64,000 bases of DNA, from the NCBI GenBank assembly GCA_043821645.1, contig JBDRCO010000072.1, forward strand, positions 79,962-143,961, written 5' to 3'. This DNA comes from Pseudomonadota bacterium. GTDB lineage: Bacteria > Myxococcota > JACRCW01 > JAFGSX01. The stretch's first letter is position 1. Each line of letters begins with the position of its first letter. A program made the position numbers and the translations under genes. Shown here piece after piece: positions 20,383-34,565 of this stretch. The notes under the pieces are model-generated. The model was not told where the DNA came from and made no database searches. It saw nothing but the letters and a program-made list of their open reading frames with translations.

Positions 20383-21906
20383 TCAGCGTGCTGTGAGATC
20401 GACGCTGCGCTGGACGCGTTCTCCAGCCCGGACCTCGACCTGGATCGTGCGCGTCAGGTCGAAGACCGGGTTGTGCAGGGTGATGCGGTGGGTTCCGACC
20501 GGCAACGAGAGGTCGCGCAGCGGTGTATGGCGCTTGATGGACACCCCGTCGATGGCCACCTGCGCCCAGGGCTCGGCGTGGAGATCCAGCCAGCCGTAGC
20601 CGGATGCCGCGTCCGCCGCCATCGAGGGCTGCGCCACCCGGATCGGTCTGCGGTGCGTGGGGCGGACAACGCCCGCATCCCGCCGCGACATCTCGTGCCC
20701 ATCCTGTGCCGTCCGCTGCACTGCCGCATCCTCCGTCGTGGGCGCGAGAATTCCGGCCTCGCGGCCAACGACCTGCATCACCAGGGCTGGCGCAGCATCC
20801 CGGGGCGTCTGCAGCACTGCAGCGTCGAGCACCTGCCCCTCCCCGGGTCGCTGCCAGTCCCGTAGGGCGATCCCTGTGGCCAGCACGACCAGCCCCACCA
20901 CCAGCGCTGGCACCCACCAGCGCCTGGAGTTGCCCGTGTCGGGCCTCCCCACGACCAGGGTCCGGCGTCGCGGTGCCGGACGCACCCTGTCCTCGAGCGG
21001 CTGGCGCTGACCCAGCACCTCGCTCATCAGCTCCTGCACCGGCACCGGCCCCAGCGACAGGCCCTCCTCGCGGGCGAGACGGCGCACCTGAGCGGCCACC
21101 TGCTCCGCGCCAGAAGGCCTCTCGCCGGCATCTCGCTGCAACAGCTGCAGGACCAGGGCATCGAGACCCGGCATCACCCCGTCGCGCAGCGACCCGGGCG
21201 CTGGAATCTCGGCATCGCGAACAGCCTGGACCGTGTCCAGGTCGGTGTCGCGGTCAAACAGGGGCCGACCGGCCAGCATCTCCCACAGCACGATGCCAGC
21301 GGAGAACAGGTCACTCGCAGGAGTCAGGGCCTCGCCGCGGGTCTGCTCGGGCGACATGTACGCGAACTTGCCCTTGAGGTCGCCGACCCGCGTCTTGTGC
21401 GTCTTGACCACCACCTGCACCACGCCGAAGTCCGTGAGCTTGACCGCACCATCGGTCCCGCACAGCAGGTTGCCCGGGCTCACGTCGCGATGGATCAAGC
21501 ACAACGTGCAGCCCTCCTCGTCCTCCATGGCATGCAGGTAGGCCATGGCGTCGAACAGGGCACAGGCCACGGTCAGGGCGAAGGCGAGCGGCAGGGGCTG
21601 ACTGCGGCGGTCCTGAAGCAGGGTGGCGAGGTCCGTGCCATCCACCAGCTCCATGGCCAGGAAGGGTCCCTCCTCGTCGCTGCCGTGTTCGAGCAAGCGC
21701 ACGACATTGGGATGGCGCAACCGCGCCCACACCCGGCACTCGTCCTGGAACATCTCGACGTAGTCCGGGTCCGCGTCGAAGGGCCGCTTGATGCGCTTGA
21801 GCGCAACCAGGGTGTCCCGGTCCAGGTCCCGGGCCAGGCAGATCTCTGCCATGCCGCCGTCGGCGAGCAGACCCAGGGATTGGTATCGAGACGTGCGTGG
21901 TTCCAT
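20383..21906 (-). CDS. Serine/threonine protein kinase with TM segment and C-terminal PEGA-like domain
   Basis: Track ORF 20383..22854; start at MEPRTSRYQ (ATG 21906). Hanks motifs: VALKRIK, HRDVSPGN, DFG, AYMSPE; TM WWVPALVVGLVVLATGIAL; C-terminal beta-rich segment. Upstream 316 codons of the track ORF are antisense to the next gene. Confidence 0.7.
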   Translation of the reverse strand: MEPRTSRYQSLGLLADGGMAEICLARDLDRDTLVALKRIKRPFDADPDYVEMFQDECRVWARLRHPNVVRLLEHGSDEEGPFLAMELVDGTDLATLLQDRRSQPLPLAFALTVACALFDAMAYLHAMEDEEGCTLCLIHRDVSPGNLLCGTDGAVKLTDFGVVQVVVKTHKTRVGDLKGKFAYMSPEQTRGEALTPASDLFSAGIVLWEMLAGRPLFDRDTDLDTVQAVRDAEIPAPGSLRDGVMPGLDALVLQLLQRDAGERPSGAEQVAAQVRRLAREEGLSLGPVPVQELMSEVLGQRQPLEDRVRPAPRRRTLVVGRPDTGNSRRWWVPALVVGLVVLATGIALRDWQRPGEGQVLDAAVLQTPRDAAPALVMQVVGREAGILAPTTEDAAVQRTAQDGHEMSRRDAGVVRPTHRRPIRVAQPSMAADAASGYGWLDLHAEPWAQVAIDGVSIKRHTPLRDLSLPVGTHRITLHNPVFDLTRTIQVEVRAGERVQRSVDLTAR

Positions 21907-22002
21907 TGCGACCCGGTCCAGGTTGCCTGTATCGTAGCCTGCCTGTTCAGGTGCGCAAAACTGCAGGTGGCGTGTCGTCCACGGAACCGGGAAGCATCGC
22001 TC

Positions 22003-23208
22003 GTGCTCGCTTGCTCCAGCATCCTGCTTGCTGCTCATCTGGCCCTGGCCAGCGCTCCCCGCGCGGCCATCCTGTCCCTCGACGACGGGGAGCAGGTCCC
22101 GGCGCAGCAGGCAGCCATCGAGGCGAGCCTGGCGGTCCGCGGCTACAGCAGCATCGACAGTGTGGATGCCCGCAGGTTGCTCGGCGACGAGCCTCCCGAG
22201 CAGGATGCCCAGGCGCTGGCCATCGAGGCCAAGAAAGCCTTTGGCGACTTCGATAGCACCACCGCACGCGAACGTCTGCGACAGGCCCAGGACATTCTGT
22301 TTGAATCGCCACGCATCCTTTCCGAGCGCACGCTGCTGGCGGACCTGCACCTGCTCGAGGGCCAGATCGCGCTCAGCGCGGGGCAGCACGACGAGGCCCT
22401 GCAGGCCCTGGCCCGCGCGGCACTGCTCGAGCCGGACAGGACCCTGCACCCCGGGCTGTATCCGCCGGACCTCATCGAGTCCTACACCGAGGCCCAGGAT
22501 TGGCTGAAGACCCAGGCCCAGGGCGCACTGGTGGTGACGACCTGGCCGGAGCATGCGCATGTCTACGTCGACGGCGTGTTCCGCGGCGAGGCGCCGGCGG
22601 TGATCGAAGGTCTGCCCGCAGGCTGGCACTACGCCACAGCCGCCGTGGATGGTCGGGGCGCGCGCACGCGGCCTTTCCTCGTCGAGGGAGGGCGCTCCAC
22701 ACAGACCACGCTGTTCGTGCCGGATGAAGCGGTCCGGGAGCAGCTCCCTTCGCTGCTGCGACGCTACCGGGCCCAGCCGGACGATGCCGATGTCGCCGCC
22801 AGGTTGCTCACCGCGGTGGGTGCACAGCTCCTCGTCGCCACGGGCACGAGCCACGACGCGGCGGCCCAGATTCTCGACGACGATCAGGCCGCGGTGGTCG
22901 TGGAGCCCGTCCTGGCGTCCACGATCGCCATCGAGGCGCGGGTCGACAAGCTCCTCGAAGCCCTCAGGAAAAAGCGCCCGGCCTCGCTGCCCGGCGTGGG
23001 CACCACAGCCACCTCGGACAGTCCACCGGCCTCGCTCGACCCGTCCGGCGATGGGGCTCCCTCACCCTGGCCCTGGATTGCCGCCGGGGCCGCAGGCCTG
23101 GTACTCGCAGGTGGAGTCACCGCCGCCATCGCCATCGCCATCGCCCTGGGGCAGCCCGAGGAGCCGGAGGATCGCGTCGATATCTACCTCGGGGGGCCCA
23201 GCCTGTGA
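22003..23208 (+). CDS. Secreted protein with TPR-like helices, PEGA-like domain and C-terminal TM
   Basis: Track ORF 21397..23208; earliest plausible start after the divergent kinase gene is GTG at 22003 (VLACSSILLAAHLALASA signal-like); PEGA-like VVTTWPEHAHVYVDGVFRGEAP...; C-terminal helix WIAAGAAGLVLAGGVTAAIAIAIAL. Confidence 0.45.
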   Translation: MLACSSILLAAHLALASAPRAAILSLDDGEQVPAQQAAIEASLAVRGYSSIDSVDARRLLGDEPPEQDAQALAIEAKKAFGDFDSTTARERLRQAQDILFESPRILSERTLLADLHLLEGQIALSAGQHDEALQALARAALLEPDRTLHPGLYPPDLIESYTEAQDWLKTQAQGALVVTTWPEHAHVYVDGVFRGEAPAVIEGLPAGWHYATAAVDGRGARTRPFLVEGGRSTQTTLFVPDEAVREQLPSLLRRYRAQPDDADVAARLLTAVGAQLLVATGTSHDAAAQILDDDQAAVVVEPVLASTIAIEARVDKLLEALRKKRPASLPGVGTTATSDSPPASLDPSGDGAPSPWPWIAAGAAGLVLAGGVTAAIAIAIALGQPEEPEDRVDIYLGGPSL

Positions 23209-24098
23209 TGCGGCTGCGCTCAGTTGCGCCGTGCGCGAGCGTCCTGGCCCTGGCCTGGATCCTCGGTGCATGCCCCAAGCCAGTGCCACCGCCAGTGCGC
23301 ACCGTGTCCATCAAGCCGTACTTCAAACCGTCGTGCGACTCGATCTGTGTCAGCACCTGTCTGGCCTGCGTCGACACCCTGCAGGTGTTCGCCATCGATG
23401 CCACGGGCCAGCGCCTGGTCGAGCGCTGTCTGGACGTCACCGGACGCTGGGAAACCCTGTGCGACCTGGCCACCGGCAGTGCCCAGCGATTGCTCGAAGA
23501 AGTCCCGACGAAAGAACCGGTGGTGCTCGAACTGCGGGCCTACCGTCGCCGCGACGCCTGGCGCCCGGATGCCGGTGTCGACGGAGGCAGCCTGTGCCAG
23601 GTGCTGCCGCGCAGCCGTGCGTGGAGCTGCGATGTCCACCAGAGCGACCTGATGCTGTGGGGCCGCGCGCGGCCCACGGATCTGAGCGCGGATGGGGGTC
23701 AGAGCAGCATCCTGGTCGAGTTCGAATGTCGCGCGGGCTGTGACTGCGTGGACATCGCAGCCCGCAAGCCGAGCTGCCCCGACGATCTGCCCGAGAGTGC
23801 GTGCGTCCCCGGCGATAGTTGCAGGCTGGGCTGCATCGATCAGACGGGCTGTTTCGAGGGTGCCCTGCGCTGCGACGTCGACGCCGGGCACTGTGACCCC
23901 GAATCTGCCGTCGGCTCGGCCACCCTCCCTTTCTGTGCGTCCTGCCAGCGTGCCAGCGACTGCCAGGACAGGTTGTGCATTGGCCGCCCGGGCCAGGATG
24001 GGGGCTTCTGCGCGCGCTCCTGCCCAGACCTGTCCTGTCCGCGCGGGGCGAAGTGCACAGCCATCGGCAATGACGGCGGATACAGCACCCTGCCCTGA
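23205..24098 (+). CDS. Cys-rich lipoprotein
   Basis: Lipobox ALAWILGACP; 30+ Cys in C-x-C / CxxxC clusters; start overlaps previous stop. Confidence 0.5.
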   Translation: MMRLRSVAPCASVLALAWILGACPKPVPPPVRTVSIKPYFKPSCDSICVSTCLACVDTLQVFAIDATGQRLVERCLDVTGRWETLCDLATGSAQRLLEEVPTKEPVVLELRAYRRRDAWRPDAGVDGGSLCQVLPRSRAWSCDVHQSDLMLWGRARPTDLSADGGQSSILVEFECRAGCDCVDIAARKPSCPDDLPESACVPGDSCRLGCIDQTGCFEGALRCDVDAGHCDPESAVGSATLPFCASCQRASDCQDRLCIGRPGQDGGFCARSCPDLSCPRGAKCTAIGNDGGYSTLP

Positions 24099-24129
24099 AC
24101 CTGCGGCGGCCCCACGACGACGGGTGCGC

Positions 24130-24981
24130 TCAGGCCAGAGCCACGGCCTCGGCCACCACCACCTGCCCGCGGTCCTCCCGCACCCTGCAGGCCGCCACCA
24201 CCGGGTCGTGCTCGAAGACCAGGATCCAGTTGTCCTCGACCGCCTGGGCCAGGATGGCTTTCTTCTCCTCGATGGTGGTCAGGGGATACAGGTCATAGCC
24301 CATGACCCACGGGATGCGCAGATGGGCTGTGGTCGGGATCACGTCGCCACAATACAGCAGGGTCTCGCCGCCACCCCGAACCCGTACCAGCTGCTGACCC
24401 ACGCTGTGTCCCTCGCTGACCAGCACCTCGACACCGTCGAAGATCTCGGTATCTCCGTCGAGCAGGTGCAGCCGGCCGCTGCGCGCGAGCAGGGTCACCT
24501 CGTCGAGCTTGAACGAACCGCGATCCTTCTCACTGGCGTGCTCTGCCCACTTGAAGTGCCGGCGCTGCAGGTGGTGGGTCGCCTCGGAAAATGTCGGCAC
24601 GAGGGTGCCCGCGCCATCCCGGCGCACGATGCCTCCGGCATGATCGAAATGCAGGTGGGTCAAGATCACATCCGTGACCTCGTCCGGCGCGACGCCGATG
24701 CGCTGCAGGGCGCCCAGGACACCTCCAGCCACGGGAGCCAGGTCGTAGATATCCTGCTCGCGCTCGCTCCAGTTCTCGCCGGCGCCGGTGTCGACCAGGA
24801 CCAGCCGACCGGCCACCCGCAGCAACAGGCAGCGCAGTGCCAGCGGGATGCGATTGCGCACATCCGCAGCGATCTGCTTCTCCCACAGCGGCTTGGGAAC
24901 GACGCCAAACATGGCGCCACCGTCGAGCGCGAAGCGTCCCATCTCGATCGTTCGAACCTCGATCTCGCCCAGCTGTCGCAT
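24130..24981 (-). CDS. MBL-fold metallo-hydrolase
   Basis: HxHxDH zinc motif (LTHLHFDHAGG) and downstream His/Asp ligands; start taken at MRQLGEIEV. Confidence 0.6.
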   Translation of the reverse strand: MRQLGEIEVRTIEMGRFALDGGAMFGVVPKPLWEKQIAADVRNRIPLALRCLLLRVAGRLVLVDTGAGENWSEREQDIYDLAPVAGGVLGALQRIGVAPDEVTDVILTHLHFDHAGGIVRRDGAGTLVPTFSEATHHLQRRHFKWAEHASEKDRGSFKLDEVTLLARSGRLHLLDGDTEIFDGVEVLVSEGHSVGQQLVRVRGGGETLLYCGDVIPTTAHLRIPWVMGYDLYPLTTIEEKKAILAQAVEDNWILVFEHDPVVAACRVREDRGQVVVAEAVALA

Positions 24982-25138
24982 CCTCGAACCTCGCACCTCA
25001 GACGTCCTGGTCGACCCCCTGGCACCTCGTCAATTCTGGGCCGTTCTCGCTCGAGCTGCAACGCTGGCGCTCGCGGGCACCGACGCCAGCGGCTTTCCTT
25101 GCACGCGGCCGCCGGAACGCGATACCACAGGAAAGGTG

Positions 25139-27019
25139 ATGCCACGCCAGCGCCACAGATGCGTGTTTTCGCGATACCGGACCAGGGCCGGTGCACTGTT
25201 CCTGTGCCTGACCCTGGCGTGTGAGCACACACCAATCAAACCGGACGAGACCAGCACCTTGACCCGGAGGTCGGCAAAGGACACGTCCCTGGCGACGCTG
25301 CCTGCCGACGAGGTTCGATTCATCTCCTCCGAGGCTTACTACCACTTCTTGCAGGGACAGCTTGCGGCCGATGCTGGGCAGTGTGAGCGCGCGATCGAGC
25401 ATTATCGAGAGGCCCTGTCCTTCGATCCGGACTCGGCACACCTGCACGTGCTCTGTGGCCGCTGCCTGCTTCGACTCGGACGCCTGGACGACAGCCTGCG
25501 CGAGGCCAGACGCGCCGTGGCACTCGATCCGTCGGGTGCCGATGCCTCCCTGCTGCTGGCCCGCGGCCTGATGCTCGCGCGGGATCTGCCGCAGGCCGCG
25601 CAGGTGCTCAAACGCGCCGCCGAGGCACACCCGGAGACCACGAGTCTCGTCGAACTGCAGGCGGAGATTGCCCTGGACCGGGGTCAGGACGAGTACGCGC
25701 TGCAGCTGATGCAGCGGCTCGCGACCCACGACCCCTCGGATCCGCGCCCAACCCTTGCTCTCGGCTTGTTGTTGCTGCGCCAGACCCGCTGGGAACTCGC
25801 GGCCCAGGCCCTGGAGCAGACACTGCAACGCGACCCCGATTCCCTCGACGCCATGGACGCCCTGACCCGAGCCTACGAGCACCTGGACCGCCGCGAAGAC
25901 GCCGCACGGGTGGCTGCACGCCGTCTCGATCTGACCCCGGACGACCGGGATGCCATCTATTCCTTCATGCGCCTGCAGGCGCGGACAGGTCAGCTGGGTC
26001 CCGCACAGGTGCTGATGCAGCGCTGGCACGACGAGGAAGGGAGCGCGGAGCTTTGGGTGGCGGCGGCCCAGGGACTGGCGGACGGAGGCGCCGACGCCAG
26101 CGCGGTCACGGTTCTCGACGAGATCCTGGCACGCGAACCGGATCTGGACCTGGCCCTGTTTACCGCAGGAAGCCTGCATGCGCGACACGGCCGCCTGAAA
26201 CGCGCCGATACCCTCCTGCGCCGCCTCGAGCCCGGTTCTCCACTCTTCTCCGAAGCGCAGGTCGAGCGCAGTCGCGTGCTGTGGCGCATGGGACGCCTCC
26301 GGGAATCGCGGGAGGTCCTGGAGCAAGCCCGCACCAGCGTCCCCGACAGCCTCGAGATAAGCCTGGCTCTCGCCGATGTCCTCGCCCGCCAGCAACAGTA
26401 CGAGAGGGCCTTCGCCATTCTCGAAGAGCTCCCCGTGCCCGCCCTGGGCCGCGAACTGGTCGTGGCGGCGCGCTCGCAGCTGCTGGCCGAGATGGGTCGT
26501 GCCGACGAGAGCGTGCAGGTTGTGTCTGACCTGGTGGCCCTGCGCCCCGACGATGCCGACCTGCTGGTGCTGCTGGCCATCGCCTACGAGCGCGCCGGAC
26601 GAAAAGCCGAGAGCGAGGGTGCGGCGCGCCAGGCCCTCACTGCCATGCCGGACCATGTGGCCGCCCAGAACTTCCTGGCCTACACCCTGGCTCAGCACGG
26701 GGACAGGCTGGACGAGGCCGTAGAACTCGCCCGGAGGGCGGTGTCGACCAGTCCAGACGACGGCTACATCGTCGACACTCTGGGTTTCGTGCTGCTGCAG
26801 CAGGGAAGCGTGGCTGAGGCCAGACAGGTCTTGCTCAGGGCAAATGAACTCAGCCCCGACGAGCCAGAGATCCTCCTGCACCTGGGAGATACGGAGCGCG
26901 CTCTGGGTCAACACCACAGCGCCCTGAAACGCTACCGCCGCGCACTCCAGCTGAGCCCGCGCGAGCGAAGCGTCCGCGAGGCGGTGCAGGAGCGCTTGAC
27001 CCGAGGAGGCTCGAGGTGA
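25139..27019 (+). CDS. TPR-repeat lipoprotein
   Basis: Track ORF 24788..27019; start at MPRQRHRCVFSRYRTRAGALFLCLTLAC (ATG 25139); more than 12 TPR-like units across 620 aa. Confidence 0.6.
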   Translation: MPRQRHRCVFSRYRTRAGALFLCLTLACEHTPIKPDETSTLTRRSAKDTSLATLPADEVRFISSEAYYHFLQGQLAADAGQCERAIEHYREALSFDPDSAHLHVLCGRCLLRLGRLDDSLREARRAVALDPSGADASLLLARGLMLARDLPQAAQVLKRAAEAHPETTSLVELQAEIALDRGQDEYALQLMQRLATHDPSDPRPTLALGLLLLRQTRWELAAQALEQTLQRDPDSLDAMDALTRAYEHLDRREDAARVAARRLDLTPDDRDAIYSFMRLQARTGQLGPAQVLMQRWHDEEGSAELWVAAAQGLADGGADASAVTVLDEILAREPDLDLALFTAGSLHARHGRLKRADTLLRRLEPGSPLFSEAQVERSRVLWRMGRLRESREVLEQARTSVPDSLEISLALADVLARQQQYERAFAILEELPVPALGRELVVAARSQLLAEMGRADESVQVVSDLVALRPDDADLLVLLAIAYERAGRKAESEGAARQALTAMPDHVAAQNFLAYTLAQHGDRLDEAVELARRAVSTSPDDGYIVDTLGFVLLQQGSVAEARQVLLRANELSPDEPEILLHLGDTERALGQHHSALKRYRRALQLSPRERSVREAVQERLTRGGSR

Positions 27020-27834
27020 CCCGGCACACTGTGCGTCGTCGGTTTCCAGCACCGCTGACCTTTGCTGTCGCGCTTGGTGTGCTCACCACGTCGGGGTGTC
27101 CGCACCCTGCCTCTCCCATCCCGCGCCTGGCCGGCGTCGAGCCGGCGGATCTGCTCGCGCGTCTGCAGGTCGCGTGGGATAAACCTCGCCAGGCGGTGGG
27201 CCTGGTCCTGCTGGAGTATCTGGCGAGCGACGGCTTTTTTCGCGGCGAGGCTGACGTGGCTGTGCAACGGCCGCGGAACCTGCGCATCGAGCTGCGGTCC
27301 TTCTTCGGGCAGCCGGCCGGGGCGCTGGTTTGTGATGGGCGACGTTACACCTTCGTGGACAACACCAGGGCGATCAGCCAGTCCGGCCCGCTGGACGACC
27401 CGGCCCTGCGTGCCCTGCTCCCCCTAGGGCTCGACGCCACGACGACGGTCTCGCTGCTCCTCGGAGGGCTCCCCGCCCTCGGACCCGGCTCCACCTCCTA
27501 CATCAAACCGCAACGACCTCCACACCTGGCGCTGCGGCACGACGACGAGGCAGGGCGCTGGCTGCTCGAGCTCGACGACAGGGCCGAGCGTCTGCTCCAG
27601 GTCGAGCACCAGGACAGCCGGGGCGATCTGCGCTTCCGGGCGCGCTTTGACGGCGCCGACTCCAGAGGCACCGTACGCTTCTCGCGCAAGGGTGAGGTCG
27701 AGGTGCGCGGGCGTGCAGGTGCCGTGAGCTGGGCTTGGAAGGACGTCGAGCTGGACGGTGAGGCCTTGCCGGCCGAGGCCTGGCAACTCAATCTACCAGG
27801 CAGCAGTTCCGACGACGACCAGAGCGAGGATTGA
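27016..27834 (+). CDS. Lipoprotein, possibly LolA/LolB-like fold
   Basis: Lipobox LGVLTTSGCP; beta-rich; start overlaps TPR stop. Fold assignment is a guess from architecture and adjacency to a TPR gene. Confidence 0.4.
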   Translation: MTRHTVRRRFPAPLTFAVALGVLTTSGCPHPASPIPRLAGVEPADLLARLQVAWDKPRQAVGLVLLEYLASDGFFRGEADVAVQRPRNLRIELRSFFGQPAGALVCDGRRYTFVDNTRAISQSGPLDDPALRALLPLGLDATTTVSLLLGGLPALGPGSTSYIKPQRPPHLALRHDDEAGRWLLELDDRAERLLQVEHQDSRGDLRFRARFDGADSRGTVRFSRKGEVEVRGRAGAVSWAWKDVELDGEALPAEAWQLNLPGSSSDDDQSED

Positions 27835-27923: not shown

Positions 27924-27938
27924 GGTATAGGTTTGTCG

Positions 27939-28712
27939 ATGGATCGACGCATCCGGTTGGGCGAATTACTGCTGCGTGCGGGGCTGATCACCGAGATGCA
28001 GCTCAAGGCCGCCCTCGCGGAGCAGAAGAAGTGGGGAGGACGGCTGGGCACTATCCTCGTCAACATGAATTTCATCTCAGAGGATATCCTGGTCAAGGGC
28101 CTGGCACGCTTGCTCGAAGTGCCCCGGGCGGACTTCGAGAACATGAACGTGCCCGACGTGGTCCTGCAGCGCTTCGACCCCACCGACTGCCAGACCCGTG
28201 GCTACCTCCCGGTGCAGTACAGCCACGCAGAGAAGAAGCTCACCGTGGCATTCGTCGACGTCAACGATCTCGCCCTCGTCGACGAGCTGCGGTTCAAGCA
28301 CGGCCTCAACATTCAGCCCGCCATCACCGGCGAGCACGCCCTGCAGGCCTCGTTGCGCAGTCTTTTTTACAGCGAGGCGCTGGACGCGAGTGTCACCGGC
28401 CAGGAGCCTGGGCTCAAGCTCATCGACAGTCGCGGCGGGACCCTGGTCAAGAACCGCGCGGAGATCTTTGGCAACGAGCCTCCGCCGGCGCCGGTGGCCA
28501 CCACGGGGGTTGAGCGTGCACCCGCCGGTGTGGCCGCGGCCCTGCCGCCCCCCCCGGTGGGCGGGATCCCCGCAGGACTGCTCAACGAGCTCGAGATCGC
28601 GCAGCGGCGCCAGTCCAGAGCCATCAAGACCGTCCTGGAGCTCCTGATCGAGAAGGGAGTGATCTCTCGCGAGGAGTTCGTCGCCAGCGTCAACAAGCGC
28701 AGCGACAGTTAG
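27939..28712 (+). CDS. MshEN (T2SS GspE N-terminal) domain protein, predicted c-di-GMP receptor
   Basis: N-terminal RLGELLLRAGLITEMQLKAALAEQ fits the 24-residue MshEN motif RLGxx(L/I)(L/I)xxG(L/I)(L/I)xxxxLxxxLxxQ; followed by GGRLGTILV...ISEDILVKGLARLL second motif and remainder of a GspE_N fold; Pro/Ala-rich linker and short C-terminal helix. Confidence 0.65.
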   Translation: MDRRIRLGELLLRAGLITEMQLKAALAEQKKWGGRLGTILVNMNFISEDILVKGLARLLEVPRADFENMNVPDVVLQRFDPTDCQTRGYLPVQYSHAEKKLTVAFVDVNDLALVDELRFKHGLNIQPAITGEHALQASLRSLFYSEALDASVTGQEPGLKLIDSRGGTLVKNRAEIFGNEPPPAPVATTGVERAPAGVAAALPPPPVGGIPAGLLNELEIAQRRQSRAIKTVLELLIEKGVISREEFVASVNKRSDS

Positions 28713-28767: not shown

Positions 28768-31700
28768 ATGGCGCAGCGGAAACGTCTCGGCGACTACCTC
28801 ATCGAGGCTGGCATCATCGACCAGTTCCAGCTGCAGTCTGCGCTGGGGCATCAGAGGCAGTGGGGTGGCAAGCTCGGCCGGATCCTGGTCGAGAATCGCT
28901 TCGTCAAGGAAGACGTGATGGTGCGCGCGCTGTCCGAGCTGCTCCGCATCGATGCCGTCGAACTCTCCTTGATGACCATCCACGCCCGGGTCATCGAGCT
29001 GGTGCCCGTGGACATGGCCGAGCGCTTCGGGCTGATCCCGGTGGCACTCAAGCGCGAGAAAGCAGGCGAGTTCGTCTACATCGCCATGAGCGATCCCACC
29101 AATCTCGAGGCCGTCGACGCCATCCAGTTCAAGACCGGCAAGAAGGTCAGGTCGATGATCGCGGGGGACAGCGCGATCGATCGCGCCATCCGCCACTACT
29201 ATTACGGAGAGACCCCCCGCGAGACAGCCAGCACACCGGCCGGACAGGTCCAGTTCTCGGGCCGCGAGATCGCGCTGTCGCCTACCCATACGCCGCCTAC
29301 CCAGGCAGCGGTGCAGGCCCCTGCGGCGGCGGGCCACCCGGCGCTCGTGGTCCCTCCTCCGGCGACCTCGCAAGGTGCCATGCCGACGCCCCCTGTTCAT
29401 CCTTTCGCGGGGCAGCCCCAGCCAGCGCTCGCTCTCCCGGACGACGACGACGACATTCCTCTGATCACGGGCACTCCGGCGGGACCAGCGACGGCAGATG
29501 ACTGGTTCTTGCCTGGTGCACCCGCTCCGGCACAGGCACTCGCAACGGCTGTTTCAGCCCCACCTGTACCTGCGACGCCCGCAGTTCCCCCAGCGCTTCC
29601 CGTCGGGCCGGCCCCGCAGCAGCAGGCACCGGTGATCCTGGATGCGCGAGAATTGACGGCCGTGAATCCGCCCGAGGCGCCATTGCCGAACGCAGCGAGC
29701 GTGCTCTCTCCTTCTCAGGTGCCTCCCCCGACGCCAGTGTCGGCCTCCTCGAGTCTTTTTGGCCCGGCCGGGGGCCTCCTGGGGGGTGAGGATGCTGGAC
29801 CGGGTTTGTCGGCGCCGCGGCAGGATGTGGCATTCGGAACGCTGGAACTCCCGACACCGGGTGCTGGGACGGCTGCGACGAGACCGCCGGCGGCGAGGAC
29901 TCCGCCTGTGCAACCCGCAACCGCAGGTCCGGCCCCTGCAGGTCTGGGGCACGTCGAACCGCCGGACGCTGCCGGCACTCCAGCGGTCCTGGACAGCAAT
30001 CTTCTGCAACCCATCAAGGAACCTGCAGTCGCCAACGCTGTGCTGGGTGAGATGGAGTTTGCTGCCCCTGAAAGCCCGCCGAGCGCATCCACCGCACCGG
30101 GGCTGGAGCCTGGTGTGATCCCGGATCGATTCCCGGCGTCAGCGCCACTTCCGGAGCATCTTCTCGCCGCCTCGGGAATGGCATCCTTCGATCTGGGGCC
30201 CGGTGACGACGATCCGCTCGAATTGGACCTCCCGGGCACACCTGTCGCCACGCCGGGGCCTGCCACCTCCACCTTGACGGTGGCTCCGAACTATGAGGTT
30301 GACCTCGGACCCGAGTCCGCTGCGATTCCCCTCGACGAGGCGACATCTCCGGCCCCGCACTCCAGATCCCCTGTGTCCGACGACGGCAGTGCTGCGGCCA
30401 TGCCCGGGGCGGTCCTCGCCGCGTCGGGACTGGCAGACTTCGAACTCGACGAGGATGGCAGCAGCATCGAGCTCGACTTCGACACCCCGACCCCAGACGA
30501 CGCGCAGTCCGCGACCCCCGCGGATCCTCTGGCGAGCATGCTTCCTGTACAGCACGCGAGCGATGAGCCCCTCGAGAGCCGCACCGAGCCCGAGAGCCCT
30601 GGGGTTGACGACAGCCTGAGTTTCGTCCCCCTCGCTCCTCCCCAGCGTGTCTCCGCCGCGGCCGCCCAAGCTGCGACCATCACCCCGAGTATACCGGTGC
30701 AGGAGAACTCCTCGGCCGCCGAGACAGAGGCAGCGGTCACGGCGGACCCTGTCGACGTGCCGCCCCCGAGCGGCAGGGACCCGTCCGGGTTGGAGCTGGT
30801 CCCTCCGGTGTCCACGGCCTTCTCCTTCGAAGACCTGGATCGGCCCCCCGCCGACGCGGTTCCCCTCGGCACCGGCCCCGACCTCGAGGTGGTTCAAGCC
30901 GAGGAGATTAAGCGGCTGGACGCTCCGAGCCACAGTCCTCAGCTGGAGACGATCCCAGCCCAGGCTGACGATTCACCGGACGCCTCTCTGCGGGAGAAGA
31001 CAGAGACCCCAGCGGCGGTCGAAGATCCGCCCCTGCCAGACCTCCCGATGGAGGTCTTCAGCGATGTCGTCGACGTGGACGCACCGCCAGTGCTGGTCAC
31101 CCCTGCACGTCTGGCGGATCCCGCGGTCGAGACCCCAGCCCCGCCGCTGCCAGAGCGCACAACCGCTCCGGAGGTGGAAGGAGCACAGGCACCTCGACGC
31201 CCGCTGCCGCCAGACCCTGTGGCGGAGGCCTCGCTGGTCGCACTCGAGGACGGAGCCAGCGACGATCTCAGCGACCTCGACTTCTCGCTCGACATCGAGG
31301 ACCCACCTCCACCCCTGGCTGCGCGTGTGCCGAAAGAGCTGCAGGCCACCGAGGAACCCGCGGTACACGAAGGGGCCGCGTCCTCCGAGCAAGCACCTCC
31401 ACTCGAACTCAGCCCCACCACCCCGGCACTCATGACCGGGGGCAGCCCGGATATCGAACCGGGACAGGGCGTGAGCGACGATCTTTTGATCCCCGAAGTG
31501 CCTGCGCAGGACCTGGCCGAGGACACCGAGGACAGCACCGTCACCGATGGTGACGAACACGCGACGATGCACGATCCCGCGTCTGATACCCAGGCACCCC
31601 AGGAGCAAAGCCCGATGTCCGGCCTGGAGCGCACGATCGAAGACGCAGCGCCACAGGACACGGAACCAGCCAGCCCAGGCGTCTCCGCTCCACCCAGCGC

Positions 31701-33006
31701 ACTCACTCCCGTCGACACCCAGACCATGGATCTGGCCCAGGGGGCCTTTGACCCGTCGAACTGGAGTCTGGATGCCTTCCCCGAATCGCTCCCAGCAGCA
31801 TCGGTGGCAGCCCCTGCACCGATCGAGGACAAATTCGCCGAGCCTGCCGGCGCGATGCCGGGCCCGGAGGATCAGGACTTCGAATCCATCGTCGACTTCT
31901 CGGAGTCAGACTTTCCGAGCGAGGCCCAGAGTCAGGACGCCGTGCTGGGAGAGGAGGATGAGGACGTCGATTCCATCATCGATTTCAAGGAATCGGACTC
32001 CCCGCGCGAGGTCCAGGGTCCGGAGACCGCGCCGGGACCGGAAGCGGACGAGTTCGTGTCCATCCTTGACTTCTCGGAGTCGGACTCCCCGCGCGAGGCC
32101 CAGAGTCCGGAGCCCAGTGCTCCCGTCGCTGACGCTCCAGCCTCCGATGGTCCGATGCCGGCGACGATCGGCCGCGTGGAAGGTGAACCGAACGCGGCTT
32201 CCGTCTCCGATGATGAAGAAGCCTCGGACCTGGACCTGGGCGAGGATCTGCCAAACTCCGAGCCCATCTCGCTGCTACCTCCACCACCCAACTTCTCCTC
32301 GGCCTCCGCCCTGCTCTCCGCACTGGACCAGGGAGAGGATCTCCCCGACCTCGAGCAGCCAGACGCCTGGATAGATGCACCGGCGGCACCGATCGCGCGG
32401 GACCCGTCCGAGGCCTCCCTGGCCCGGTTCCACGACGACGCCGACCCGAGCGATGCGCTCGACCTCCCATTTGACGCGGAGCAGGCACCCTCGCCCGCTC
32501 CCAGTGCCACGACAGTCCTGGATGAGCCGCCATCCTCCAGCCACCCGATCGAGGATCTGAGCTCGGCCCTCGACGTGGCTTTCCCGGACCTCACCCTCGA
32601 TCCCCCGACGGAAGACAGCGTGCCACCGTCTCTCCCGGCAGCTGGGAGTCGGCTGCCAGAGGTCGCCCTGGACGCGCTCGGGGATGACATCGACGCGGTC
32701 GCGACGGAATTTCAGCTCGACCCACCGGCGAGCGAGCCCGCGATGACCCTGTCTGGATCTGACGTCGCGGTGCTACCCGAACTCCAGCTCGAGGGCCCGG
32801 AGCTGGCAGACGAATCCTTGACGGCCTCAGCGTCAGGGCCAGCCACCGAGAAGACGACGACACATCCGGTCCTGGCACCCGATGTGGAGGCTCTGCTCGA
32901 CAATATCGATGCCGCCAAGATGCCCGCGGTCCTCAAGCTGCTGCTGGAAAAGGGTCTGCTCTCCCTCGAGGACATCGAGGCGACCCTGGGCAAGAAGAAG
33001 GACTGA
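28768..33006 (+). CDS. Giant MshEN-domain protein with about 1200-aa acidic Pro/Ala/Glu/Asp-rich low-complexity region
   Basis: N-terminal RLGDYLIEAGIIDQFQLQSALGHQ (MshEN motif) and full GspE_N-like domain (about 155 aa); then continuous low-complexity P/A/E/D/S-rich sequence to near the C-terminus, ending in a conserved-looking helix MPAVLKLLLEKGLLSLEDIEATLGKKKD. Confidence 0.65.
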   Translation: MAQRKRLGDYLIEAGIIDQFQLQSALGHQRQWGGKLGRILVENRFVKEDVMVRALSELLRIDAVELSLMTIHARVIELVPVDMAERFGLIPVALKREKAGEFVYIAMSDPTNLEAVDAIQFKTGKKVRSMIAGDSAIDRAIRHYYYGETPRETASTPAGQVQFSGREIALSPTHTPPTQAAVQAPAAAGHPALVVPPPATSQGAMPTPPVHPFAGQPQPALALPDDDDDIPLITGTPAGPATADDWFLPGAPAPAQALATAVSAPPVPATPAVPPALPVGPAPQQQAPVILDARELTAVNPPEAPLPNAASVLSPSQVPPPTPVSASSSLFGPAGGLLGGEDAGPGLSAPRQDVAFGTLELPTPGAGTAATRPPAARTPPVQPATAGPAPAGLGHVEPPDAAGTPAVLDSNLLQPIKEPAVANAVLGEMEFAAPESPPSASTAPGLEPGVIPDRFPASAPLPEHLLAASGMASFDLGPGDDDPLELDLPGTPVATPGPATSTLTVAPNYEVDLGPESAAIPLDEATSPAPHSRSPVSDDGSAAAMPGAVLAASGLADFELDEDGSSIELDFDTPTPDDAQSATPADPLASMLPVQHASDEPLESRTEPESPGVDDSLSFVPLAPPQRVSAAAAQAATITPSIPVQENSSAAETEAAVTADPVDVPPPSGRDPSGLELVPPVSTAFSFEDLDRPPADAVPLGTGPDLEVVQAEEIKRLDAPSHSPQLETIPAQADDSPDASLREKTETPAAVEDPPLPDLPMEVFSDVVDVDAPPVLVTPARLADPAVETPAPPLPERTTAPEVEGAQAPRRPLPPDPVAEASLVALEDGASDDLSDLDFSLDIEDPPPPLAARVPKELQATEEPAVHEGAASSEQAPPLELSPTTPALMTGGSPDIEPGQGVSDDLLIPEVPAQDLAEDTEDSTVTDGDEHATMHDPASDTQAPQEQSPMSGLERTIEDAAPQDTEPASPGVSAPPSALTPVDTQTMDLAQGAFDPSNWSLDAFPESLPAASVAAPAPIEDKFAEPAGAMPGPEDQDFESIVDFSESDFPSEAQSQDAVLGEEDEDVDSIIDFKESDSPREVQGPETAPGPEADEFVSILDFSESDSPREAQSPEPSAPVADAPASDGPMPATIGRVEGEPNAASVSDDEEASDLDLGEDLPNSEPISLLPPPPNFSSASALLSALDQGEDLPDLEQPDAWIDAPAAPIARDPSEASLARFHDDADPSDALDLPFDAEQAPSPAPSATTVLDEPPSSSHPIEDLSSALDVAFPDLTLDPPTEDSVPPSLPAAGSRLPEVALDALGDDIDAVATEFQLDPPASEPAMTLSGSDVAVLPELQLEGPELADESLTASASGPATEKTTTHPVLAPDVEALLDNIDAAKMPAVLKLLLEKGLLSLEDIEATLGKKKD
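31876..32115 (+). repeat. Three tandem about 75-bp coding repeats inside the giant gene
   Basis: Peptide units ESIVDFSESDFPSEAQSQD / DSIIDFKESDSPREVQGPE / VSILDFSESDSPREAQSPE; DNA units share ...gacttctcggagtc(a/g)gact(tt/cc)cc...gaggcccagagtc.... Confidence 0.5.
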
Positions 33007-33040: not shown

Positions 33041-33409
33041 TCAGTCTTCTCCGCGCGCTGCCACGATGGTGTCAATGAGCTGTCGGCTCTCGTCGTCGAG
33101 GCTGAGGAACTCGATACCCATGCCTGGCACCTGATCGGCACTCGCCTGGGCGCTGGCCCACACGACGCGACCGATGCCCTCGATGAGAGGCATCCCATCT
33201 GCCAGGGCAAAGCGCAGGTAGATGGTCGAGCCGATCGCATGCGGCGAATCGGTGCGCAGGAACAGTCCCCCGGCCGACAGGTCGGTCGCGATCTCTTCCA
33301 TGAAGGCTTCGAGGGTCTCGAAGCGGTGCTGAACCAGGAGGTTGAGCGGGACGCGACGGTGGCGACGCCGGTCCTTCGGATCAGACGATGCCCCATGCGG
33401 CTTTGCCAT
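33041..33409 (-). CDS. Single-domain PilZ protein, predicted c-di-GMP receptor
   Basis: C-terminal 122 codons of track ORF 33041..34276; start MAKPHG (ATG 33409); RxxxR motif (DRRRHRRV) followed about 25 aa later by DxSxxG (DLSAGG). Confidence 0.65.
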   Translation of the reverse strand: MAKPHGASSDPKDRRRHRRVPLNLLVQHRFETLEAFMEEIATDLSAGGLFLRTDSPHAIGSTIYLRFALADGMPLIEGIGRVVWASAQASADQVPGMGIEFLSLDDESRQLIDTIVAARGED

Positions 33410-33463
33410 CCCTGACCTCCCTGTGCCTGGCGTGCTGCATGAGTCTAGCGCGAATTCAGTTCG

Positions 33464-33500: not shown

Positions 33501-34565
33501 TCAGGGCTGCAGGGCCGCACGCTGGGCTGCCACCTCCGGGTCATCGGGAAGCCGGGCATCGAGCTCAAGCAGCCGGTAGCGGTAGCGGGTCTTGCCACGC
33601 TGTCTCTCGAGCCAGGCGGCAGTCTCCGCCTGCTCTGCGCGCGCCTGTGCATCCTCGGGCCTGCGCACGAGTCTCTGCACCGCCAGCTCCCGGCGCTCCC
33701 GCGCGTCCTCGGTGACGGCCCCGCCACGCCAGGTGGCGTCACCCCGAACAGCCCACACCTCGAACTGGACGAGGTAGTGACCTTGCTGGCCGGCGGCCAC
33801 CACGGGCACGCTGCTGCCGTCCCTCTCCGGGTGCTGGCCAGGCCGGGCCTCCTCGCGAGGCAGAAAAGAAACCAGCCCACGCTGGGCGACCAGCACCACC
33901 GACACCTGTGGCAACCCCTGCGCCAGCCTGGCCGCGGCGTCGGAGGACATGCGTGCCACCAGCACCACATGATCACCGGGCCGGGCCACCTTCGCCAGCA
34001 CCCCGCGCAGCGCAGGCAGGGCGGGTGTCGGGTCCAGGCCCGTCGCGGGTGGCCAGTTGGCCGGATCCAGCGCACTGACGACGACGATACGCTGCCCACC
34101 GAGCTGCCGCACCACGTGGCTCTGGTAGGCCGGTCGGCGATCCGCGACCCGCACCAGGTTGCTGGCCACCACGGGGAGCTTGTACGCGCGCACCAGCTCG
34201 TCGAAGCGCGCAAGCCCCAGGCCGAGGTCACCCGGCCCGGGTACCAGCGCATCCAGCTCAGCCCTGTGGAGAGCACTTGCGATCACACGTGCCCGCGCCA
34301 GCGCAAGGACGCCATTGTCCCCTGGCGACGCCGCCTCGTCGAAGAAGCTGTTACCACCCTCGATGTGGAGCACGGGTCCGCGCTCCCGCAGTGCCCGGAT
34401 CGTTCCCACCTGCCTGGCCAGACCGCCAAGCGGACCACTGGGTCAGCCACAGGGGTCGAGGGCCCCCTCCCGGTCGTGGGCATAAAGCACCGTGAAGCTC
34501 ACGGGCTCGTCGTCGAGGTTGGCGGCGCAGAGCAGGACAGACGCCACCACGGCCAGGGCGTGCAT
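33501..34565 (-). pseudogene. Metallophosphoesterase/5-prime-nucleotidase-like gene interrupted by in-frame TGA, catalytic motifs degenerate
   Basis: Signal peptide + FTVLYAHDREGALDPCG (ORF 34443..34706, start ATG 34565) is in the same frame as ORF 33501..34409 but separated by TGA at 34443-34445; downstream sequence continues ...PSGPLGGLARQVGTIRAL...; expected GDxxD/GNHE metal ligands are replaced (LHIEGGNSFF, PGPGDLGLG). Confidence 0.4.

Follow-up and report, generated by a model that had tools for sequence, protein, structure and literature searches.

Does a short tandem repeat embedded in a giant acidic linker represent a regulatory motif, or ordinary turnover of the linker that carries it? 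The question is raised by a gene in the window (the whole stretch of DNA that was analysed, 64,000 nucleotides), for which a preliminary description had reported three consecutive units, proposed as phosphorylation targets that could vary in copy number between strains. The three units are real, lie at the place described and are in frame with the 1412-aa open reading frame of the host gene (Table 1). A DNA repeat search delimits the tandem array at 31851-32111 (+), as three in-frame copies of 87 nt (29 aa) with unit spacings of 87/87 nt and 76% nucleotide identity to the reference copy, unit 1. The period is therefore 29 aa (87 nt) and not the 25 aa first reported, and of the proposed extent, 31876-32115, the location stands while the start does not, as the array begins ~25 nt further upstream.

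Table 1. Features of the repeat-bearing locus, in window positions
Feature	Position	Strand	Residues or sequence	Identification
Ser/Thr kinase gene	20383-22854	-		Pkinase+PEGA
Upstream MshEN paralogue	27933-28712	+	257-259 aa	Pfam, NCBIfam, alignment
Host gene	28768-33006	+	1412-aa cytoplasmic protein	ORF, identical to P0001; NCBI MFH1810214.1 "hypothetical", MAG Pseudomonadota bacterium
N-terminal MshEN/GSPII domain	28768-29217	+		Pfam PF05157, E 1.4e-16, 60.7 bits vs threshold 23.1
53-residue c-di-GMP motif of the MshEN domain			aa 6-57, RLGDYLIEAGIIDQFQLQSALGHQ-RQWGG-KLGRILVENRFVKEDVMVRALSEL	motif definition PMC5013675
Linker island	29449-29472	+	aa 228-235, DDIPLITG, after a DDDDD run	
Linker island	29758-29784	+	aa 331-339, FGPAGGLLG	
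Second internal repeat, two copies	30163-30446	+	LLAASGMASFDL / VLAASGLADFEL, 84 aa apart	
Repeat unit 1	31851-31937	+	aa 1029-1057, AMPGPEDQDFESIVDFSESDFPSEAQSQD	reference copy, in-frame translation
Repeat unit 2	31938-32024	+	aa 1058-1086, AVLGEEDEDVDSIIDFKESDSPREVQGPE	76% nt identity to unit 1, translation
Repeat unit 3	32025-32111	+	aa 1087-1115, TAPGPEADEFVSILDFSESDSPREAQSPE	76% nt identity to unit 1, translation
Unit peptide of the 29-aa repeat			EADEFVSILDFSESDSPREAQS	
C-terminal helical module	32878-32988	+	aa 1371-1407, ~40 aa, ...MPAVLKLLLEKGLLSLEDIEATL...	
Convergent PilZ-domain gene	33041-33430	-	129 aa	Pfam PF07238, E 1.2e-14; TIGR02266, 82.2 bits vs cut-off 68.7

Periodicity is evident on self-alignment: the best ungapped BLOSUM62 self-diagonal falls at offset 29 with a score of 163 (offset 58 scores 92), as compared with 63.9±8.1 and a maximum of 87 in 60 composition-preserving shuffles of the linker. 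Tandem Repeats Finder, even with a minimum score of 30, overlooked the array at 31851-32111 because the units are too diverged; the array is defined here by the DNA repeat search and the diagonal scan instead. All three units share the core G.E.....SI.DF.ESD.P.E.Q with 12 invariant positions, which shows stronger conservation than the flanking parts in each of them, and conservation of the DNA extends to column 65 of 87. The hydrophobic-acidic core reported at both the protein and the DNA level is thereby borne out, and the units constitute short hydrophobic-acidic elements in a disordered linker. Neither Pfam nor NCBIfam yields a family over the repeat region. Rfam gives no RNA family across the whole window, so a reading of the repeat at the RNA level is without support. 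The D(E/Q)F(E/V)SI segment merely resembles eukaryotic acidic-aromatic motifs (LIR-like F-x-x-I, FFAT-like); this reading was rejected because V replaces F in unit 2 and because, to our knowledge, receptors for such motifs are absent from bacteria. Inspection by eye gave no match to Ca-binding repeats of the DxDxDG type.

The disordered character of the region around the units, also part of the preliminary description, is supported by acidic composition, charge-hydropathy and AF2 pLDDT. The repeat stretch contains 28 D+E vs 3 K+R in 88 aa, and the charge-hydropathy boundary places it with disordered sequences. An AF2 model of aa 960-1412, run on a single sequence and thus weak evidence taken alone, leaves the units without secondary structure, with 10-residue block-mean pLDDT of 37-56 up to about aa 1367. 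Tripeptides of the Phi-[DE]-Phi class are enriched in the host tether (24 observed vs 9.2 expected, z=5.2). The enrichment is also found in six relatives (P0002, P0003, P0004, P0007, P0010, and P0017), where the part that comes from their own repeats is non-independent; it is absent from a second, P0008-like clade and from L013. Related Phi-D/E-Phi...P elements recur along the host tether (e.g., LELDLPGTP, IELDFDTPTP, and LELPTPG), and FDL..PTPP elements occur in the orthologues L013, L093, and L094.

The host protein consists of an N-terminal MshEN domain, a ~1200-aa acidic linker rich in Pro, Ala, Asp and Glu, and a C-terminal helical module, and carries a net charge of -187 over its whole length. 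No transmembrane segment was found in it, as no 19-aa window has a mean KD>=1.6 (the maximum, 1.31, lies within the MshEN domain). Besides its Pfam match, the N-terminal domain scores 65.7 bits against NCBIfam NF053729 (cut-off 38) and retrieves PilF (2.4e-29) and MshE (5htl, 5.8e-14) in a phmmer search of the PDB. Within the c-di-GMP motif, the 24 residues of motif 1 match perfectly and are followed by a spacer of 5 residues (RQWGG), while motif 2 departs at three positions (R1K, G10R, and Q24L). We infer c-di-GMP binding and regard the host protein as a predicted c-di-GMP receptor; the repeat array lies ~880 aa away from the MshEN domain. The [DE]DIPxxxG island is found in 10 of 24 family proteins, the host protein among them, and the F[GA]xxxxFLG-type island occurs in the same 10 as well as in L013, L093, and L094. 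The two copies of the second internal repeat have 84% nucleotide identity over 32 nt and produce a self-diagonal at offset 84; their LAASG segment is present in P0003 too. The C-terminal module is predicted by AF2, without an alignment, as three helices (block-mean pLDDT 72-88), shares 45% identity over 38 aa with the L013 orthologue and is kept across the family. Profile comparison (hhalign probability 85%, E 6e-6) indicates homology between this module and the C-terminal end of the small MshEN paralogue family.

A member of the latter family is encoded directly upstream of the host gene. Its linker measures only ~60 aa and its C-terminal helix (VLELLIEKGVISREEF) is the same as that of the host protein. 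The AF2 model of this paralogue (pLDDT 83.6) combines an MshEN fold with a C-terminal helical hairpin, and Foldseek relates it to MshE 5htl_B (E 5.8e-9, TMt 0.80), the fold assignment applying to the adjacent paralogue only. The pair of short- and long-linker MshEN genes is kept in L001, L004/L005, L006, L013, L093, L094, and L095. The convergent PilZ gene, which encodes RRRHR and DLSAGG motifs, is syntenic in L013 and L093, and a gene for a TPR protein (24788-27019) constitutes another syntenic neighbor. The arrangement of the pair with PilZ recurs in several uncultured Myxococcota-like metagenome contigs and MAGs (Myxococcales, "Deltaproteobacteria"), with long linkers of ~600-1200 aa; relatives of the N-terminal domain (locus layout unchecked) were found in assemblies of Anaeromyxobacteraceae, Nitrospirota, and Bdellovibrionota. 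A contig lookup with the 1412-aa protein itself returned none on record, and a literature search turned up no account of MshEN proteins whose linkers are long and disordered. FrgA is cited, reportedly, as an MshEN protein of Myxococcus. Myxococcus has 17-22 MshEN proteins, most of them without a known role (PMC8844925, PMC5013675).

The repeat unit appears to be private to this lineage. A profile of the unit found no copy in 24 homologues, none elsewhere in the six-frame translated window and none in 95 fetched loci (941 kb) of relatives; the unit is absent even from the fully syntenic orthologues L013 (1045 aa) and L093 (1107 aa). Among 1.84e9 representative proteins the profile detected no true copy, although this library did not return the host protein either. 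The one "significant" match there, P0026, contains an unrelated perfect 62-aa x21 repeat (DFVWSDSCREAQ) and is spurious because 21 weak stretches add up. A word-index homologue search with aa 1024-1125 returned nothing and constitutes a weak negative, because the host protein itself was not returned. The back-translated unit pattern had six single matches in JGI metagenomes, none a true copy, a number close to a rough chance estimate (a few). Five come from a single unrelated globular family (RILDFLEWDEPDED), and stop codons interrupt the unrelated stretch matched by the sixth.

BLASTP aligns the host protein to L013 only at aa 1 to ~250 and over the last 38 aa, leaving the linker unalignable, and in the L093 orthologue the N- and C-terminal ends are conserved alike, as judged by eye. 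Most of the 24 family members bear a tandem array of their own in the linker, differing in period and unit. L013 is the most striking case, with ~35 AEPAAE repeats plus PALET repeats, and in L093 short EPTP repeats are visible in the translation. Repeat content thus varies by lineage, and the present units look like the ordinary, lineage-specific turnover of repeats in a disordered tether that evolves fast, not like a conserved regulatory motif. Present-day instability of copy number is unlikely. The units are 72-76% identical in pairwise nucleotide comparison, with longest exact runs of 7, 15, and 19 nt between unit pairs, which argues against ongoing recombinational instability, since slippage or recombination in variable-number repeats is permitted by near-identical units. 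The only close relative, L095 (source SRR22388267; 85 of 91 N-terminal residues identical to the host protein, and 84-87% identity for the small paralogue), is a 1.2-kb contig ending 91 codons into the gene, before the linker.

The best explanation, to which we assign a probability of roughly 55%, is a lineage-private triplication of an 87-bp segment in a rapidly turning-over acidic tether, acting through bulk or multivalent linker properties. Conservation in the family is limited to the MshEN domain at the N-terminus, some short islands and the ~40-aa C-terminal module, between which the tether would turn over fast, with tandem repeats born, expanded and decayed. The units would add length, negative charge and three more I-[VIL]-D-F hydrophobic-acid-hydrophobic "stickers". 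Since tripeptides of this class are over-represented throughout the tether, we infer that they most likely work by spacing the two end modules and by weak multivalent contacts. A purely neutral origin would account for part of the same record: the array could have arisen by accident, through replication or recombination, in a linker that tolerates it, and would now be decaying, with no function beyond that of linker. Its privacy to one lineage, the divergence of the units (dS 0.30-0.58, whole-unit dN/dS up to 0.95) and a linker that is unalignable even among syntenic orthologues are consistent with such an accident, and neutrality stands in the Fisher tests for purifying selection between units (p 0.07-0.43, non-significant with few sites). 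It explains less readily why, in each of the three units, the core is visibly more conserved than its surroundings and why its Phi-D-Phi belongs to the class enriched along the tether. By the Nei-Gojobori method, dN/dS between units in the core is 0.27-0.54, which suggests mild constraint, though neutrality fits as well. We consider this neutral reading improbable, and slightly less likely than a docking role, which is itself possible but unlikely. In the latter case the unit (SI-x-DF-x-ESD-x-P) would be a short linear motif binding a defined partner, e.g., by beta-strand addition, and its triplication would raise avidity; the nearby-encoded TPR protein, the PilZ protein and the small MshEN paralogue are candidate partners. 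The 12 invariant positions, the low dN/dS of the core and the related Phi-D/E-Phi...P and FDL..PTPP elements in this and other tethers point in that direction, as do the synteny of the TPR and PilZ genes and the binding of a PilZ protein by the MshEN-type domain of PilB in Xanthomonas citri (PDB ID: 7lkm, among the fold matches). However, the exact unit is missing from every orthologue though the candidate partners are conserved, AF2 shows no local structure in the units, and the signal of constraint is non-significant.

Phosphorylation, as originally proposed for the SxxE/D and SP sites, is by far the least probable of the explanations. The serines of SESDSP would be substrates of a Hanks-type Ser/Thr kinase, such as the Pkinase+PEGA protein of the window, and their modification would switch the behavior of the linker. 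The units do contain SESD and SP sequences, and the kinase gene lies ~6 kb upstream of the host gene (~9 kb from the repeat) and is syntenic in L093. It is located on the opposite strand, however, with five genes between, and since myxobacteria-like genomes encode very many Hanks-type kinases, one would expect to meet such a kinase within 64 kb. Thr is the main target of bacterial Hanks kinases, which are not known to follow a CK2-like or proline-directed consensus. The counts in the linker remain at the level given by composition, both for [ST]P (35 vs 31.2±4.4 expected) and for S..[DE] (22 vs 20.1±3.9 expected). Two Ser-bearing columns vary among units 1/2/3, with S/K/S before ESD and F/S/S before Pro. 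A conserved kinase-substrate relation through the unit is excluded, because the L093 orthologue, with the kinase syntenic, is without the unit.

The triplication by itself is of little weight, being another case of the rapid lineage-specific turnover typical of acidic disordered linkers. Its value lies in drawing attention to the host locus, where the operon-like, uncharacterised short/long-linker MshEN pair beside a canonical PilZ gene is the more interesting feature. The pair would lend itself naturally to asking what a predicted c-di-GMP receptor gains from a giant disordered tether.

Several known systems resemble parts of this locus. MshEN/GSPII domains bind c-di-GMP in MshE, PilB, and PilF (Wang et al. 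2016, PMC5013675). The N-terminal 150 aa of the host protein match the same Pfam MshEN family, the NCBIfam c-di-GMP motif and the PDB sequences, but the protein is without an ATPase, glycosyltransferase or other output domain and has instead the ~1200-aa disordered tether and the small helical C-terminus. The PilB-PilZ-FimX complex of X. citri (PDB ID: 7lkm) is a case in which a PilZ protein works together with an MshEN-type domain. The two MshEN genes and the PilZ gene are conserved neighbors here, so an interaction might be proposed by analogy only; the window contains neither a PilB ATPase nor FimX, and the analogy leaves the repeat aside. Like the host family, the polar hub proteins HubP of Vibrio and Shewanella and, broadly, FimV/TspA have conserved end modules joined by a long, very acidic stretch that is cytoplasmic and unstructured. 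The acidic cytoplasmic repeats of HubP are imperfect and vary in composition, length and number by genus, even between close species (PMC12918733). The imperfect tandem repeats of the host protein and its relatives likewise vary between species, a resemblance in behavior only, as the two proteins have no sequence similarity. Unlike HubP/FimV, the host protein is without LysM (no Pfam match at E<=1), a transmembrane segment or a C-terminal FimV/TPR domain (no Pfam or NCBIfam match at the C-terminus); its N-terminal module is MshEN and its array comprises three units of 29 aa. PopZ from Caulobacter, at ~180 aa, is a small protein whose linker is short and which has neither tandem repeats nor a nucleotide-binding domain. 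In disordered hubs of this type (see Holmes et al. 2016, cited in PMC10212136), a short module for interactions is reportedly followed by a disordered linker, acidic and rich in Pro, and by helices at the C-terminus; this layout is similar to that of the host protein, with no homology detected. A broader and doubtful proposal is that the host protein and its short-linker paralogue may form a class, so far undescribed, of disordered cytoplasmic scaffolds that respond to c-di-GMP in Myxococcota-like bacteria, with MshEN sensing the nucleotide. In that case, the C-terminal modules might pair the paralogues or dock them to the neighboring PilZ protein, the giant acidic tether would recruit clients or form condensates through its many Phi-D/E-Phi stickers, and the 29-aa triplication would have raised sticker valency recently and in this lineage alone. 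Such a scaffold would constitute a soluble counterpart of HubP or PopZ.

The repeat region at 31876-32115 is best read as a moderately old tandem triplication, private to the lineage, in a fast-evolving, acidic and disordered tether, the linker of the large MshEN protein (Table). In a DNA repeat search the three copies are arranged head-to-tail with a spacing of exactly 87 and 87 nt; as 87 equals 3 x 29, they are in frame. The three consecutive units of the preliminary description are borne out at its otherwise correct coordinates, but the period is 29 aa (87 nt) instead of 25 aa. The units span aa 1029-1115 and share 12 invariant positions (core SI.DF.ESD.P.E.Q). Self-alignment of the protein places the periodicity far over background: the best ungapped diagonal has offset 29 (score 163) and the second offset 58 (score 92), against 63.9±8.1 (maximum 87) in 60 composition-preserving shuffles of the linker. 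The copies are too diverged for Tandem Repeats Finder to report the array.

Table. Features of the large MshEN gene and its surroundings (window coordinates)
Feature	Position	Strand	Remarks
Ser/Thr kinase	20383-22854	opposite to large gene	~6 kb upstream of large gene
Lipoprotein-like gene	27016-27834		31% identity to L004:6327-7088 (relative's locus)
Small MshEN paralogue	27933-28712	+	257-259 aa; immediately upstream of large gene
Large MshEN gene	28768-33006	+	1412 aa; host of the repeat region
Second c-di-GMP motif	28882-28953		KLGRILVENRFVKEDVMVRALSEL; aa 39-62
Linker	29263-32868		aa 166-1367
Island DDDDDIPLITG	29437-29472		in otherwise unalignable linker
Island FGPAGGLLGGED	29758-29793		in otherwise unalignable linker
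Second internal repeat	30163-30194 and 30415-30446		LLAASGMASFDL / VLAASGLADFEL; 84 aa apart, 84% DNA identity
Repeat unit 1	31851-31937	+	87 nt; reference copy; AMPGPEDQDFESIVDFSESDFPSEAQSQD
Repeat unit 2	31938-32024	+	87 nt; 76% identity to unit 1; AVLGEEDEDVDSIIDFKESDSPREVQGPE
Repeat unit 3	32025-32111	+	87 nt; 76% identity to unit 1; TAPGPEADEFVSILDFSESDSPREAQSPE
C-terminal helix	32878-32988		VLKLLLEKGLLSLEDIEATLGKK; aa 1371-1407
PilZ gene	33041-33430	-	TIGR02266 type (Myxococcus-expanded); convergent, downstream of large gene
302-aa ORF	33501-34409	-	weak UshA-like 5'-nucleotidase/metallophosphoesterase match (70 bits, below the cut-off of 275)

The sole Pfam family matched by the large protein, which is identical to the NCBI MAG entry MFH1810214.1 ('hypothetical protein', Pseudomonadota bacterium), is MshEN (PF05157, aa 60-148, E 1.4e-16). 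The 53-residue NCBIfam domain 'c-di-GMP motif, MshE-related' (NF053729) covers aa 6-57 (65.7 bits, cut-off 38), and the first 150 aa match PDB sequences of PilF, PilB, and MshE (E 2.4e-29 to 5.8e-14). By the definition of Wang et al. (PMC5013675), the first c-di-GMP half-motif is perfect (RLGDYLIEAGIIDQFQLQSALGHQ, spacer RQWGG), whereas in the second three key positions differ (K replaces R1, R the turn Gly10, and L Gln24), which makes c-di-GMP binding plausible only. The second half-motif of the small paralogue deviates similarly (N for Gly10, L for Gln24); a perfect one is kept in more distant relatives, such as the homologous protein P0007. The other ~1200 aa consist mainly of A, P, D, L, S, and E, without any Cys; the whole protein has a net charge of -187, and a hydrophobicity scan found no window in it fitting a membrane segment. 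In the 88-aa repeat stretch, 28 acidic residues face 3 basic ones. AF2 without an alignment (aa 960-1412) gives a block-mean pLDDT of 37-56 up to ~aa 1367, with almost no secondary structure apart from two short low-confidence helices, neither inside the units; the final ~40 aa form three helices (72-88). The C-terminal helix fits the hydrophobic/Gly pattern of one 24-residue MshEN half-motif (hhxxGhhxxxxhxxxh), with the RLG start missing, and may constitute a third, degenerate half-site or a dimerisation element.

The unit appears to be private to this lineage. A three-unit profile, which recovers each of its own copies at 52-55 bits, matches nothing further among the 24 homologues or when the entire window is translated in six frames, and finds nothing in 95 loci of relatives (941 kb) except a chance match in L010 (E=0.1). 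Among 1.84 billion representative proteins the sole match is P0026, and the window's own protein is not returned either. A further large protein search, queried with aa 1024-1125, returns no protein at all, the window's own included, and counts as a weak negative. P0026 is a 1306-aa 'protein' built from a 62-aa unit repeated perfectly 21 times, reaching E 4e-17 against the 31-position profile. It is rejected as a homologue, its unrelated repeat having summed weak matches, and is probably translated satellite DNA; it serves as a warning for short-profile searches, in which weak matches add up. The back-translated DNA pattern S-I-x-D-F-x-E-S-D-x-P-x-E gives six single matches in JGI metagenomes, all unrelated to the unit. 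The unit is also absent from both syntenic orthologues: that of L013 (1045 aa) aligns with the window protein in two segments only, aa 1-~250 and the final 38 aa, and that of L093 (1107 aa) has, judged by eye, the same conserved ends. The one close relative is L095, a 1.2-kb contig in which the large gene breaks off after 91 codons (85/91 identical).

Such an array belongs to a well-known kind of feature, and the earlier proposal that its SP and SxxE/D sites could be phosphorylation targets is unsupported. SP/TP and SxxD/E counts in the tether are at composition expectation, and two Ser-bearing motif columns vary among the units; the kinase encoded in the window is conserved in L093, and the L093 orthologue lacks the unit. 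Copy-number variation, also suggested earlier, seems unlikely at present, since the units share 72-76% DNA identity and an exact stretch of at most 19 nt; over longer times the repeat content of the linker clearly changes. Values of dS (0.30-0.58) and dN/dS (0.39-0.95 for the whole unit, 0.27-0.54 for the core) between units indicate that the triplication is not recent and that the core may be under mild constraint; Fisher tests of this constraint are not significant (p 0.07-0.43, ~11 synonymous sites).

The units may be a specific docking motif, or simply neutral. The preferred reading is that they work through bulk or multivalent properties of the tether, to which the triplication would add length, charge, and three additional 'stickers'. 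The tripeptide central to the unit (V/I/L-D-F) is of a hydrophobic-acid-hydrophobic class that occurs 24 times in the linker against 9.2 expected from composition (2.6-fold, z=5.2), with 22 instances scattered over aa 359 to 1268 (e.g., DLDFSLDIED and DLDLGEDLP), often followed by Pro or Thr-Pro (LELDLPGTP, IELDFDTPTP, LELPTPG). Comparable FDL..PTPP elements are found in the orthologues of L013, L093, and L094. Enrichment of the class extends to six relatives (P0002, P0003, P0004, P0007, P0010, and P0017), with no enrichment in the family's second clade. Better candidates for short linear motifs than the 29-aa unit are two linker islands, DDIPxITG and FGPxxxFLG, which 10 of the 24 family members have in common, counting the window protein. 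The first bears a superficial likeness to the acidic C-terminal tip of SSB (DDDIPF).

The repeat itself matters little; the host gene pair is the more interesting context and merits separate attention. The small paralogue has the same MshEN domain (NF053729, 74.5 bits) and the same C-terminal helix (VLELLIEKGVISREEF vs VLKLLLEKGLLSLEDIE in the large protein), but a linker of ~60 aa instead of ~1200 aa; in an hhalign comparison, the C-terminal 42 aa of the large protein align to the C-terminus of the small family (probability 85%, E 6e-6). The AF2 model of the small protein (81 sequences, pLDDT 83.6) comprises the MshEN fold and a C-terminal helical hairpin; its fold matches c-di-GMP-bound MshE (5htl, TMt 0.80) and the N-terminal domain of PilB as seen in a complex with PilZ (7lkm). 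The PilZ protein carries canonical RxxxR (RRRHR) and DxSxxG (DLSAGG) motifs. With two MshEN genes and one PilZ gene, the locus thus encodes a cluster of three predicted c-di-GMP receptors. Myxococcus xanthus has 17-22 MshEN proteins, mostly uncharacterised (PMC8844925, PMC5013675); a literature search returned no account of MshEN proteins carrying disordered linkers of this giant size.

The short/long pair recurs in seven or more further contigs (L001, L004/L005, L006, L013, L093, L094, and L095) and not in L002, in which a 5'-nucleotidase C-terminal-domain gene immediately precedes the large MshEN gene. Scanning species-representative genomes yields 533 relatives of the N-terminal domain, mostly from MAGs labelled Myxococcales, Anaeromyxobacteraceae, 'Deltaproteobacteria', Nitrospirota or Bdellovibrionota; the best is L013 (77% identical in that domain). 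Full synteny is seen in L013 and the JGI contig L093, in the order lipoprotein-like, small MshEN, large MshEN, convergent PilZ, ~270-300-aa gene, and nuoF. The ~270-300-aa gene is the similarly sized counterpart of the 302-aa ORF. In L093 synteny reaches nuoE downstream and a TPR-like protein, a Lactamase_B gene, and the Ser/Thr kinase upstream; the whole neighbourhood of 20383-27834, including a ~300-aa gene, is syntenic with L093:1-6896, and the small paralogues are ~66% identical. The kinase is fused to PEGA in the window, while L093 has a separate weak-PEGA gene adjoining it.

The same architecture, with MshEN at the N-terminus, an extended low-complexity middle part, and a short, conserved helix at the C-terminus, recurs in 23 further proteins of 786-1376 aa. 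Most relatives have linker-borne tandem repeats of their own, whose units and periods are unrelated: PVEAx over ~200 aa in P0002, APPVV/EATPVEV in P0003, a 20-aa unit x12 in P0012, 12 aa x14 in P0022, and AEPAAE x~35 with PALET repeats in L013. From the second internal repeat of the window protein, LAASG is also present in P0003 and its AASG core in P0002. Membership of the HubP or FimV proteins is rejected, as the LysM domain, the TM segment, and the FimV domain are all missing. The likeness to HubP-type polar hubs is one of behaviour only: in those proteins, genera and even close species differ in the make-up, length, and number of the acidic repeats (PMC12918733), and the linker repeats of the window protein and its relatives vary comparably.
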